In this document: positions 31,178-33,612 of the stretch, piece after piece
Layout: each line of letters starts with the position of its first letter
Position numbering within the stretch: position 1 is the stretch's first letter
NCBI RefSeq assembly: GCF_003334385.1
Contig: NZ_QOWN01000047.1
Length of the DNA: 34,123 nucleotides
Reading direction: 5' to 3' (one strand)
DNA from: Escherichia coli
GTDB lineage: Bacteria; Pseudomonadota; Gammaproteobacteria; Enterobacterales; Enterobacteriaceae
Position numbers and translations under genes: made by a program
The notes under the pieces: model-generated
Seen by the model: only the letters and a program-made list of their open reading frames with translations
Told to the model about the DNA's origin: nothing
The model's database searches: none

Positions 31178-32158
31178 ATGAACGCAATAATATCGCCTGA
31201 TTATTACTATATTCTTACCGTTGCTGGTCAGTCTAATGCCATGGCGTATGGCGAAGGACTGCCATTACCGGACAGGGAAGATGCGCCTCATCCCAGAATT
31301 AAACAATTAGCGAGATTTGCGCATACGCATCCCGGAGGCCCGTCATGTCACTTTAACGACATTATTCCACTGACTCACTGCCCACACGATGTTCAGGATA
31401 TGCAGGGTTATCACCATCCTCTGGCAACGAATCATCAAACACAGTACGGCACCGTTGGCCAGGCACTGCATATAGCACGGAAATTACTGCCCTTTATTCC
31501 TGATAATGCAGGGGTTCTCATCGTTCCGTGTTGCCGTGGCGGATCGGCTTTTACCGCGGGCAGCGAAGGGACATATTCAGAACGGCACGGAGCCAGCCAT
31601 GATGCTTGTCGTTGGGGAACGGATACTCCGCTATACCAGGATTTAGTCAGCAGAACGCGAGCCGCACTGGCAAAAAATCCGCATAACAAATTCCTCGGCG
31701 TATGCTGGATGCAAGGCGAATTTGACTTAATGACCAGTGACTACGCGTCACACCCTCAACACTTTAATCATATGGTTGAAGCCTTTCGTAGGGATCTAAA
31801 ACAATACCATTCTCAGCTTAATAATATTACTGACGCACCGTGGTTTTGCGGCGATACCACCTGGTACTGGAAAGAAAATTTCCCTCATGCGTATGAAGTT
31901 ATTTATGGCAATTATCAAAATAATGTTTTAGCCAATATTATTTTCGTCGACTTCCAGCAACAAGGTGAAAGAGGACTGACGAACGCGCCTGATGAAGACC
32001 CGGACGATTTAAGCACGGGATATTACGGTTCAGCGTACCGGTCACCGGAGAACTGGACGACGGCACTGCGAAGCAGTCATTTCAGCACGGCAGCCCGTCG
32101 GGGGATTATTTCTGACAAGTTTGTAGAAGCAATTTTGCAGTTTTGGCGCGAAAGGTGA
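31178..32158 (+). CDS. nanS: Probable 9-O-acetyl-N-acetylneuraminate esterase NanS
   Basis: ORF 31151-32158 (TTG-initiated in the track); ATG at 31178 (MNAIISPDYYYILTVAGQSNAMAYG) gives 326 aa with SGNH-like GQSN motif. Confidence 0.85.
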   Translation: MNAIISPDYYYILTVAGQSNAMAYGEGLPLPDREDAPHPRIKQLARFAHTHPGGPSCHFNDIIPLTHCPHDVQDMQGYHHPLATNHQTQYGTVGQALHIARKLLPFIPDNAGVLIVPCCRGGSAFTAGSEGTYSERHGASHDACRWGTDTPLYQDLVSRTRAALAKNPHNKFLGVCWMQGEFDLMTSDYASHPQHFNHMVEAFRRDLKQYHSQLNNITDAPWFCGDTTWYWKENFPHAYEVIYGNYQNNVLANIIFVDFQQQGERGLTNAPDEDPDDLSTGYYGSAYRSPENWTTALRSSHFSTAARRGIISDKFVEAILQFWRER

Positions 32159-32165
32159 GCGTTCA

Positions 32166-32816
32166 TTAATTTGATTTATTCGCATCCATCAGCGCTTTTA
32201 ACTGCTCCGGCGTAAACGGTGGTTTGCGTCGGTGCAACATCGCATGGCAATTAGGGTACACAGGCAGCAAATCATTAACTGGATCCAGCTGGTAATCCTC
32301 TTTGATGGCTGACAGCGGCACCAGGTGATGCACATGGATAAAGCCTTCAGCGATATCACCATAGATCTTCACCAGATCAACACCGCATACGTTGCACTGG
32401 CATCCATGATGTTCGACCGCTTTATCTCGGGCCTTTTTATCGCGTTCATAGCGGTTTACTGTCACCTTTATCGCCGCACCTTCAAGGTATGTCTCCTGCG
32501 ACGGCAACTCATCCGGGAACAGAACGTCGGCTATGGGAGCCGCAGCGGCTTTATCCAGATGAATATGAAATCCCTGCTCTATGAGTAGCTTGACACATTT
32601 AGATTTTATTCCGCCGGTGAAATCCGCAGGGGTAAATTGCGTCCCCGTCATCAATGTCGCTGCGATGCCAGCAATCGCCTTCGAGGGGTAACGTCGGCCA
32701 TGATATTCAATCTCATACAACCGCGCAGGCTGGAACTGATGAGTTTCTCCCGCATCCCATAAATGGATAGCTTCGATGATATACCGCCGCGGAAGATGAT
32801 CAGGGAGTTTATTCAT
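32166..32816 (-). CDS. HNH endonuclease with N-terminal putative modified-DNA (possibly phosphorothioate) sensing domain; candidate type IV restriction enzyme
   Basis: 216-aa ORF. C-terminal HNH signature read directly: CQCNVCG ... HVHHLVP ... NDLLPVYPNCH. N-terminal about 120 aa contains RRYPSKA (Y-P-x-x-A), reminiscent of the sulfur-binding cavity of SBD domains; the SBD assignment is inference. Confidence 0.6.
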   Translation of the reverse strand: MNKLPDHLPRRYIIEAIHLWDAGETHQFQPARLYEIEYHGRRYPSKAIAGIAATLMTGTQFTPADFTGGIKSKCVKLLIEQGFHIHLDKAAAAPIADVLFPDELPSQETYLEGAAIKVTVNRYERDKKARDKAVEHHGCQCNVCGVDLVKIYGDIAEGFIHVHHLVPLSAIKEDYQLDPVNDLLPVYPNCHAMLHRRKPPFTPEQLKALMDANKSN

Positions 32817-32919
32817 GGAGAATGTCCTTATACGTTCTCAGAACAGGCAGCAAAAAAACAAATGAGATCAAGGTAATATATCTTCACTTGCAGGCTTGAA
32901 CAGCAGAAAATTTGCGAGC

Positions 32920-33138
32920 ATGATCGCAATTATTTCACTGCCAGGGATATCAATAGCTTCCAGTAAATCGCTACAGCAGGCAATTGCCAATATAAAAATC
33001 TGGCACAAGGGTGAACAGCGCGCGCCGCATAAGCCATTGTTATTGCTATACGTATTAGCGGGATACCTGAATGGACATCCGCGCCTTTTCGATTATTGTA
33101 GTGGAACTGTCTACGAGGATGCAGTTCGAAGTGAGTAA
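32920..33138 (+). CDS. Hypothetical small protein (possible gene remnant), divergent from the HNH gene
   Basis: ORF 32896-33138 (TTG in track); first ATG at 32920; no recognisable domain. Confidence 0.25.
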   Translation: MIAIISLPGISIASSKSLQQAIANIKIWHKGEQRAPHKPLLLLYVLAGYLNGHPRLFDYCSGTVYEDAVRSE

Positions 33139-33161: not shown

Positions 33162-33380
33162 ATGCCGCCATACAATGATTTTTTAGGATCAACAATGAGT
33201 AATAAAAACTACGAAAGTCACCGCAAAGCGATTGTTAGTAAAGGTATACCACCCGCTCTATTAAATAGGCTCACCAATTCGGATGTTCAGGTGATCAATA
33301 CCTTCTTAACACGAGTGAGCAAACTGGAACTATCTCAACAAGAGAAAGACTGGATCATAAAAATCATCTCTATGGTTTAG
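33162..33380 (+). CDS. Hypothetical small protein
   Basis: 72-aa ORF; an internal ATG preceded by AGGA would give 61 aa; different frame from the preceding ORF; no recognisable domain. Confidence 0.25.
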   Translation: MPPYNDFLGSTMSNKNYESHRKAIVSKGIPPALLNRLTNSDVQVINTFLTRVSKLELSQQEKDWIIKIISMV

Positions 33381-33581
33381 ACAATTTCAGCCTTGTAGCC
33401 TTTCAAGGGTTTTGTGTGGGTACAAACATTATCGAATCGGGGTATAGCCGCAGCTGTAGCTGTATCCACATCAGTAAGTTGATGTAGGTTGACTTAGGTT
33501 GAGCGAAAAATAGCGAAAAGCCTTGTGTGGCGCGGATTTCAGTCATAAAAAAACGTCCGTTGATGTCTATTGATGTTCCGA

Positions 33582-33612
33582 TGGTGCGAAGGTGCGAAGG
33601 CCGGACTCAAAC
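33582..33612 (-). repeat. Degenerate copy of the tRNA-Leu (leuX) 3-prime end; putative island attachment-site remnant
   Basis: Minus-strand read GTTTGAGTCCGGCCTTCGCACCTTCGCACCA matches the T-arm/acceptor 3-prime end of leuX (GGTTCGAGTCCGGCCTTCGGCACCA) with one deletion and an 8-nt tandem duplication; no complete tRNA is present. Confidence 0.55.

Follow-up and report, generated by a model that had tools for sequence, protein, structure and literature searches.

A candidate restriction nuclease that joins a ScoMcrA-type head domain to an HNH domain beside the nan operon of Escherichia coli, with the remnant of a divergent partner gene

What does the N-terminal half of a small HNH protein encoded beside the nan operon of Escherichia coli recognize, and does its gene belong to a restriction system? 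The gene lies in a stretch of 34,123 nucleotides of E. coli DNA, the whole of which was analysed and is called the window here. A sequence-only reading of the window had proposed that the N-terminal part of the protein senses phosphorothioate sulfur through a Tyr-Pro-x-x-Ala motif, in the way that the sulfur-binding domain (SBD) of McrA-like enzymes does, and that the protein is a modification-dependent restriction enzyme. The explanation that we favour, with a probability of roughly 0.6, is that the gene encodes a nuclease composed of a ScoMcrA-type head domain and an HNH domain (head-HNH), that it and an SBD-HNH gene are the two halves of an ancestral defence cassette next to the nan operon, that this partner has been lost, and that a Cys-to-Tyr substitution at residue 187 is probably damaging.

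The open reading frame (ORF) begins with ATG and comprises 216 codons plus a stop, corresponding to a product of ~24 kDa, and the position, start and length given for it in the sequence-only reading agree with the ORF list (Table 1). Because the product has strong homologues in the protein database (n=1054, best E value 2e-144), the ORF is a real gene rather than a chance one. RefSeq names the protein “HNH endonuclease”, and an identical protein is present in E. coli E2865. The gene and nanS converge; nanS stops at 32158, is full length and shares 98% identity with K-12 NanS. On its other side, blastn comparison with K-12 leuX revealed two collinear minus-strand matches: positions 33595-33608 correspond to leuX positions 66-79 (14/14 matches), and positions 33534-33553 correspond to the sequence just 3' of leuX (19/20 matches). 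An 18-mer of this remnant occurs only once in the window. The gene had thus been placed properly between nanS and a leuX-derived att remnant, although the statement that it is the only clearly accessory gene in the window is not quite accurate, as the remnant of a second restriction gene adjoins it and is followed by island-end fragments. GC content is 0.50, compared with 0.42-0.45 in the flanks, which is no sharp anomaly. The ORF list contains no methyltransferase gene adjoining the head-HNH gene in the window.

Table 1. Coordinates of the features at the head-HNH locus, as positions in the window
Feature	Position	Strand	Basis or remark
29-codon ORF equivalent to the body of K-12 YthB	32077..32166	(-)	Translations; RefSeq hypothetical protein
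Head-HNH coding sequence, complete	32166..32816	(-)	ORF list; RefSeq WP_001037966.1
McrA-type HNH (beta-beta-alpha-Me) domain with zinc knuckle, residues 121-216	32169..32456	(-)	Pfam, EcoKMcrA, PADLOC
Codon 187, TAC (Tyr); TGC (Cys, third zinc ligand) in relatives	32256..32258	(-)	54-relative alignment
Inter-domain linker, residues 91-120	32457..32546	(-)	pLDDT 45-55; predicted disordered; conserved FPDE and EG motifs
ScoMcrA-type head domain, residues 1-90 (Pfam PF26345, ScoMcrA_N), alpha-beta-beta-alpha-alpha-beta	32547..32816	(-)	Profile match, AlphaFold
YPSKA codons, Y43-P44-S45-K46-A47	32676..32690	(-)	Head-domain signature; strand 2/helix 2 junction
Divergent intergenic spacer, 136 bp, containing the head-HNH ribosome-binding site (RBS) AAGGA	32817..32952	.	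Equal spacing where both genes are intact
EcoWI-type SBD-HNH gene remnant	32953..33102	(+)	RefSeq pseudogene; NF045808 positions 2-45, E 1.7e-16
Degenerate leuX 3'-end copy with downstream flank (island att remnant)	33534..33608	(-)	blastn against K-12 leuX

A ScoMcrA-type head at the N terminus

AlphaFold models contain a confidently predicted domain at residues 1-90, then a low-confidence linker and finally the HNH domain. The N-terminal region of 120 residues that had been set apart from the nuclease therefore does include a separate domain, but only about its first 90 residues are folded and the rest is linker. Within the linker, residues P101, E103, E112 and G113 are conserved among relatives.

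The identity of the folded part was established by several routes. When 35 relatives were combined into a profile, its positions 6-88 aligned with residues 4-93 of the type IV enzyme ScoMcrA of Streptomyces coelicolor (5zmm_A, E value 1.9e-9), and there was no other match. A search of PDB sequences with the single protein sequence likewise aligned residues 24-86 with residues 29-92 of ScoMcrA (5ZMM), and in this alignment RRYPSKAIAGIA stands opposite RLYDSKAIAGVA. The Pfam family PF26345 (ScoMcrA_N) is a precomputed assignment for homologues sharing 99% identity with the protein, and homologues also carry PF01844 (HNH); a scan with an older Pfam-A release returned nothing on the N-terminal domain. 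The predicted fold is that of the solved ScoMcrA head domain. ScoMcrA itself is built from a head domain, an SBD (represented by constructs 91-260 and 91-442), an SRA domain and an HNH domain, and its head domain has been described as being of ‘unknown function’ (Liu et al. 2018, PMC6224610).

The region of ScoMcrA that is matched bears directly on the proposal that the domain is an SBD-like sulfur sensor and the protein a phosphorothioate-dependent, McrA-like enzyme. The sulfur cavity of ScoMcrA is formed by H116, R117, Y164, P165 and A168, located in helix 5 (ALHR) and helix 8 (YPFWA), so that its two halves, H116-R/K117 (the HxP-LLL motif) and Y/M164-P165-F-W-A168, reside on two separate helices (PMC6224610). 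The Tyr-Pro-x-x-Ala arrangement named in the sequence-only reading is correct for the SBD of ScoMcrA (YPFWA, Y164-A168), and the RRYPSKA stretch is indeed present in the head-HNH protein, at residues 41-47. However, YPSKA aligns opposite YDSKA of the ScoMcrA head domain, for which the family consensus is YPPKA, and is not equivalent to the cavity motif. The profile matches residues 4-93 of ScoMcrA only, with none of the match falling on the SBD at 91-260, and the HK/HR-P-LLL motif of the sulfur cavity is absent from the head-HNH protein. Comparison of the head profile with an enterobacterial SBD profile in hhalign yielded a probability of about 0.3%, and the NCBIfam model PT-DNA_restrict (NF045808), which has a cut-off of 180 bits, gave the head-HNH protein a score of 17. 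The orthologue of the neighbouring gene served as a positive control and matches the ScoMcrA SBD at residues 94-229 (E value 3e-9); HKPLLLL and MPFWR, the true cavity motifs of E. coli, both belong to that neighbouring gene.

A sulfur-sensing head could still draw on the relationship of the protein to ScoMcrA, on the genuine SBD-HNH gene that adjoins it and on the weak PT-DNA_restrict match (E value 0.002), but given the evidence above we consider it highly improbable. The PT-DNA_restrict match covers residues 65-149, away from the cavity residues, and was set aside as a chance match, as was a weak hhalign alignment of the matching stretch TGGI / AGGF at 0.25% probability. Homology identifies the N-terminal domain as a ScoMcrA_N head and not as a sensor of phosphorothioate sulfur. 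The sequence-only reading had named an unrelated N-terminal fold as an outcome that would count against it, and with respect to the SBD this is what was found.

The YPxKA signature is strongly conserved in 145 family members (Y and P 91% each, K and A 95% each), and position 45, which is serine here, is proline in 98% of them. The near-invariant residues of the head family (H26, F28, S31, D35, Y43, P44, P45, K46, A47, G50, A52, F66, G69 and K88) are mostly kept. The departures seen in the enteric clade, S31A, D35E, P45S and K88D, fall at positions that are 96-99% conserved in the 145 other members. At least A31, E35 and S45 are shared by the closest enterobacterial homologues listed, and K88D occurs in some of them. 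Because these substitutions recur in close homologues, the four departures suggest a subfamily variant rather than decay.

The head domain among restriction modules

The head domain is not confined to proteins of this size. A search of 1.84 billion representative proteins with the head profile recovered 4014 clusters (E value ≤1e-3), with lengths from ~100 to 1567 amino acids. Among 89 longer head-containing members in which Pfam domains were counted as fusion partners, HNH (34/89) and HNH_2 (19/89) are the most frequent, followed by EVE (13/89), NOV_C (8/89), AAA_5 of the McrB type (7/89), nSTAND3 (6/89), DUF3427 (3/89), SAD_SRA and MrcB_N (2/89 each), and AspBHI_N and NUDIX (1/89 each). In proteins that carry GPPGxGKT, the McrB-type Walker A motif, the head is located upstream of the NTPase. 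Foldseek comparison against AFDB50 returned a matching set of partners together with DUF3883 and ZorC-EH proteins, and the PADLOC matches on head-containing proteins are to type IV or HNH restriction models. No SBD was detected in the 146 best head-containing representatives, which is a weak result given the narrow, four-sequence SBD HMM that was used. As judged from its fusions, the head keeps the company of type IV target-recognition modules.

Two roles for the head are compatible with these partners. The head occupies the same position as the readers of EVE-HNH, SRA-HNH, TagI and Mrr_N-HNH proteins and of McrBC, in which the N-terminal domain of McrB is variable, and it is also fused with such readers and with McrB-type GTPases. 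Because it often occurs together with known readers (EVE, SRA and McrB_N), it could serve either as an additional reader or as a general DNA-binding accessory. Thus, the head may bind DNA generically or play an accessory part rather than read a modification. In the head-HNH proteins of ~210 amino acids, the head is the sole candidate for a targeting domain. This minimal layout makes the head-HNH protein the cleanest system in which to define what the head recognizes. The structure of the head was solved in 2018, and the ~4000 protein clusters that contain the domain almost always link it to restriction or defence modules. No functional study of the head domain or of any head-HNH protein was found in the open literature searched. 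Both domains of head-HNH are already catalogued, and the enzyme belongs to a known kind, of which it is an uncharacterised variant.

The sequence-only reading had regarded a sensor joined to HNH as a design typical of type IV restriction enzymes. This view gains support from the ScoMcrA-head homology, from the fusions of the head to HNH, NOV_C, McrB-type GTPase (AAA_5), EVE, SRA and McrB_N modules, and from the variable island site, and the same fusions make a sensor-plus-HNH, type IV-like restriction enzyme a plausible interpretation of the domain architecture. The features by which such enzymes are assigned, namely a solitary nuclease, a reader-like domain, the lack of a cognate methyltransferase and an island or defence context, are all found at this locus. 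In the mechanism that we propose, the head would act as a DNA- or target-sensing module and the linker-tethered HNH domain would nick or cleave nearby DNA. The head-HNH protein would then operate as a solitary type IV-like restriction enzyme without a methyltransferase, with its activity perhaps dependent on modification of the target.

The HNH domain and the Cys187Tyr allele

The C-terminal domain was recognized by several methods, some of them with weak scores. The match to the Pfam HNH family in the older Pfam-A release covers residues 141-197 (E value 0.006), and the alignment with EcoKMcrA (6ghc) covers residues 123-198 (E value 0.02). The protein also matches the PADLOC model mREase_IV (PDLC03656), and Foldseek matches of this domain include Cap5, Cas5-HNH and the HNH domains of Cas9. 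EcoKMcrA (PDB 6GHC), the 5mC/5hmC-dependent NEco-HNH enzyme, provides the closest solved HNH domain by sequence and shares with head-HNH the general plan of a reader followed by a C-terminal McrA-type HNH domain. However, neither sequence nor fold searches revealed any likeness between NEco, its N-terminal reader, and the N-terminal domain of head-HNH.

The motifs on which a textbook HNH nuclease had been called (CxxC, HVHH, N, CH) are present as C141-x2-C144, H161-V-H163-H164, N189-C190-H191 and H195. Across 54 aligned relatives none of these residues varies except H161 (53/54), and the catalytic and metal-site residues H163, H164, N189, H191 and H195 are all retained. The domain departs from the textbook at its second zinc knuckle, which reads P-V-Y187-P-N-C190 instead of CxxC. 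The four-cysteine zinc site (CxxC ... CxxC) is therefore incomplete, with C141, C144 and C190 in place and tyrosine at position 187, where 52 of the 54 relatives carry cysteine and none other carries tyrosine. Among E. coli alleles, those at 94-98% identity to the window sequence encode Cys187, whereas Tyr187 marks a near-clonal allele group that is ≥99% identical to the window. The Cys187 allele of strain STEC379 is WP_001037978.1. The exact 57-nt sequence of the Tyr allele is found in ~660 genomes.

In McrA-type HNH domains, loss of one of the four zinc-ligand cysteines is expected to be destabilising. With one ligand missing, the allele in the window may be attenuated or dead, and C187Y probably weakens or inactivates it.

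A divergent cassette and its decay states

The remnant that faces the head-HNH gene across the spacer carries the RefSeq label of a “phosphorothioated DNA-binding restriction endonuclease” fragment. Its start codon has changed from ATG to ATA and it keeps 48 codons, among them RAPHKPLLLL, in which HKPLLLL represents one half of the sulfur cavity; everything after these codons is deleted. An intact SBD-HNH gene of 290 codons occupies the matching position in E. coli STEC379, E01, ET350 and GPEC1356, where it is again divergent from head-HNH. The N-terminal 170 residues of the intact protein match the SBD of ScoMcrA (5zmo, E value 2.5e-10; 5zmm residues 94-229), with HKPLLLL opposite ALHRPVLLL and MPFWRL opposite YPFWAL. 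Given that head-HNH matches ScoMcrA residues 4-93 and SBD-HNH matches residues 94-229, these adjacent stretches of ScoMcrA are the counterparts of the N-terminal domains of two separate, adjacent E. coli genes. ScoMcrA (Sco4631, PDB 5ZMM), a head-SBD-SRA-HNH protein, carries its SBD in the same chain, whereas the SBD of E. coli is encoded by a separate neighbouring gene; head-HNH lacks both SBD and SRA, the only experimentally established readers of ScoMcrA, and joins the head directly to HNH.

The divergent pair also occurs in Klebsiella aerogenes, in three Citrobacter species and in one Enterobacter species. At the K. aerogenes locus, genes for head-HNH, SBD-HNH and Mrr_N-HNH proteins lie side by side with a type I restriction-modification system next to them. 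In E. coli, a paralogue of head-HNH (57% identity) is carried on an integrative and conjugative element (ICE) with an SBD-HNH gene 4 kb away, and relatives of the head-HNH gene are located in defence islands or ICEs. Head-HNH is thus half of an old two-gene cassette beside nanS whose other half is SBD-HNH, and in the window this second half has decayed to a 48-codon stump.

The neighbouring gene resembles those of the phosphorothioate-dependent EcoWI/SprMcrA (SBD-HNH; PF26340, NF045808) enzymes. These enzymes and head-HNH are both small, two-domain sensor-HNH proteins that share one divergent cassette in Enterobacteriaceae, but their N-terminal domains are unrelated and their HNH domains belong to different families (PF13391 in SBD-HNH, PF01844 in head-HNH). 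EcoWI has a reported mass of 33.4 kDa (PMC7461809); the mass of the SBD-HNH neighbour, 33.2 kDa, is compatible with EcoWI identity without proving it.

Does head-HNH depend on this neighbour? The two proteins might form a two-gene phosphorothioate-restriction module in which head-HNH provides, for example, a second DNA contact or strand cut; in that event it would have little function in the window, where the partner is deleted. The persistence of the divergent pair across four enterobacterial genera, the SBD-HNH gene near the ICE-borne paralogue and the union of head and SBD in ScoMcrA are what such a module would predict. In addition, among species-representative genomes an SBD lies within 10 kb at 4 of 11 head-HNH loci but at none of 69 loci that encode the same HNH type with other N-terminal domains, and all five Tyr187 alleles among 12 sampled loci sit beside a dead SBD stump. 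Yet the known pairs are phylogenetically close and may represent a single inherited cassette. EcoWI-type SBD-HNH enzymes need no partner, in vitro or in vivo, and restrict phosphorothioate-modified plasmids unaided (PMC7461809), and the two HNH subfamilies differ. Many E. coli genomes carry only one gene of the pair, and the partner is missing beside some Cys187 alleles too: intact SBD-HNH stands beside four of the seven sampled Cys187 alleles and a stump beside the other three. Distant head-HNH genes, including those of Raoultella, K. pneumoniae, Atlantibacter, Pseudescherichia and a Sulfurimonadaceae MAG, have no SBD neighbour; a combined search by HMM and HKP-LLL motif found none outside the enterobacterial clade. 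We therefore judge a functional partnership to be improbable. Because SBD-HNH works alone, the simplest reading of the pair is that of two independent enzymes travelling as one cassette.

A more far-reaching interpretation, which we advance only tentatively and regard as unlikely, is that the head reads a DNA modification, or another non-self feature, in a role not recognised so far, and suffices on its own to target HNH. Head-HNH proteins would then be a new and widespread class of type IV enzyme, forming a dual-specificity cassette with SBD-HNH in Enterobacteriaceae, of which ScoMcrA would be the fused version. The conserved cassette and the ScoMcrA fusion offer a testable connection with phosphorothioate-directed restriction.

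The sequence-only reading had suggested a survey of presence and absence across E. coli genomes, and in 5426 complete genomes the gene proved to be variable. Some trace of head-HNH is present in 3151 genomes and an essentially full-length gene in 1239, whereas ~1900 retain only the last 106 nt. For SBD-HNH, 1707 genomes have a full-length gene and 4871 show traces of it. All four states of the locus occur: both genes intact, either one alone, and neither. Frameshifted and truncated variants of the locus also exist in E. coli. The head-HNH gene is rare on plasmids. Comparison of its E. coli alleles gave pN/pS values of 0.10-0.20, with constraint on either domain, which indicates that head-HNH has been under purifying selection. 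The gene to all appearances is, or was, functional.

These data also bear on whether the copy in the window is a decaying relic, with an intact ORF but an enzyme that is dead through loss of its structural zinc site. Such a fate would accord with Tyr187, found in no other relative in the alignment and limited within E. coli to one near-clonal allele group, and with the widespread decay of the locus through frameshifts, truncations, the 106-nt stump and the deletion in K-12; the partner gene in the window is already dead. On the other side of the ledger, the ORF is intact and carries no further lesions in roughly 660 genomes, and the remaining catalytic residues H163, H164, N189 and H195 are unaltered. 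We consider a dead enzyme to be a serious possibility, although not the leading one, and it bears on activity only, leaving the identity of the gene unchanged.

A role outside defence, as a homing endonuclease or as a packaging or processing nuclease of a phage or mobile element, would suit the frequency of HNH domains in such functions, the position of the gene at an island boundary and the presence of its paralogue on an ICE. However, a search of 50,697 phage records produced no full-length homologue, only matches to the HNH domain. The gene lies within neither another gene nor an intron, and belongs to a chromosomal cassette with a fixed site that is traceable in the 3151 genomes. Together with the restriction and defence modules to which the head is fused, this makes a selfish or housekeeping function very unlikely.

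The locus of K-12 represents a further decay state. K-12 lacks head-HNH, and its nanS-yjhR interval keeps the spacer, the RBS and the first five head-HNH codons. A simple promoter scan of the minus strand of the divergent spacer found no sigma-70 consensus, an uninformative outcome. The deletion joins the five codons to a short ORF that in the window lies 3' of the HNH stop codon, which it overlaps as TAATG, and that is antisense to the 3' end of nanS. This fusion encodes MNKLP-AHLSRQNCKIASTNLSEIIPRRAAVLK, annotated as the small protein YthB, the start codon of which is the head-HNH start. By this sequence correspondence, YthB is a deletion remnant, or chimera, of the head-HNH gene. For E. coli genomics, the findings account for a polymorphic locus of defence genes next to the nan operon as well as for the origin of YthB. 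Because YthB has been detected by epitope tagging (Weaver et al., bioRxiv 10.1101/511675) and is made from the head-HNH start, the expression signals of head-HNH would appear, indirectly, to be active.

A widely shuffled nuclease module and the head domain

The head-HNH protein joins a ScoMcrA-type head domain to a McrA-type HNH nuclease. A genome-contig scan for its HNH subtype (NRYERDxxAR ... PNCHAMLH) yielded 576 candidate loci, 80 of which were retrieved, and in most of these the match is confined to residues ~95-216. The same subtype is linked to many differing N-terminal regions across phyla (comparison loci L024-L092), which indicates that it is a widely shuffled nuclease module.

Within the head domain, positions 31, 35, 45 and 88 are S, D, P and K, respectively, at 96-99% in 145 other family representatives, and A, E, S and D in the enterobacterial clade to which this protein belongs. 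These residues (A31/E35/S45/D88) could reflect a shift in specificity in the head subfamily that is paired with SBD-HNH, the EcoWI-type phosphorothioate-dependent restriction gene.

Coordinates of features in the window and in retrieved comparison loci (L-numbers)
Feature	Location	Strand	Remark
nanS	window 31178-32158	+	full length, 98% identical to K-12 NanS
29-codon ORF	window 32077-32166	-	joined to HNH stop by TAATG overlap; antisense to nanS 3' end
Head domain, residues 31, 35, 45, 88	window 32547-32816	-	A31, E35, S45, D88
EcoWI-type SBD-HNH phosphorothioate-dependent restriction gene, remnant	window 32953-33102	+	
61-aa ORF, hypothetical protein WP_000066585.1 (RefSeq)	window 33195-33380	+	between SBD stump and att remnant
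YthB (b4802)	L098 (K-12) 5598-5696		
Array of three small sensor-HNH genes	L005 (Klebsiella aerogenes) 4260-6636		Mrr_N-HNH, SBD-HNH, ScoMcrA_N-HNH in a row
Second E. coli head-HNH paralogue	L010-L012 6001-6654		on integrative conjugative element (ICE)
Type II Zorya system (zorB2, zorE)	L093 (E. coli E01) 1-2382		abuts head-HNH/SBD-HNH cassette

Companion genes and defence loci

Of 5426 E. coli genomes, 1707 carry an intact SBD-HNH gene and 4871 retain some trace of it; the remnant in the window has an ATG>ATA change at its start codon and retains 48 codons. The adjacent 61-aa ORF had no match in NCBIfam. The three sensor-HNH genes of K. aerogenes, directly adjoined by a type I R-M system, constitute a compact type IV array. 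The ICE-borne paralogue of E. coli (57% identity; present on 565 contigs) is flanked by HTH regulators and TraI, and an SBD-HNH gene lies 4 kb away. At the cassette site itself, the abutting Zorya system of strain E01, together with the reduction of nanM/nanS there to a fragment, marks a hotspot for defence genes.

Origin of YthB and annotation of nanS

The small protein YthB of K-12, for which experimental detection has been reported (bioRxiv 10.1101/511675), originated as a deletion chimera. Its front part corresponds to the ribosome-binding site and first five codons (MNKLP) of head-HNH, and the remainder is the 29-codon ORF that otherwise follows the HNH stop codon. Many RefSeq/PGAP records call nanS a truncated pseudogene (e.g. 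L001 5013-5627), and it is these same records that call the 29-aa antisense ORF. The pseudogene label looks like an annotation artefact.
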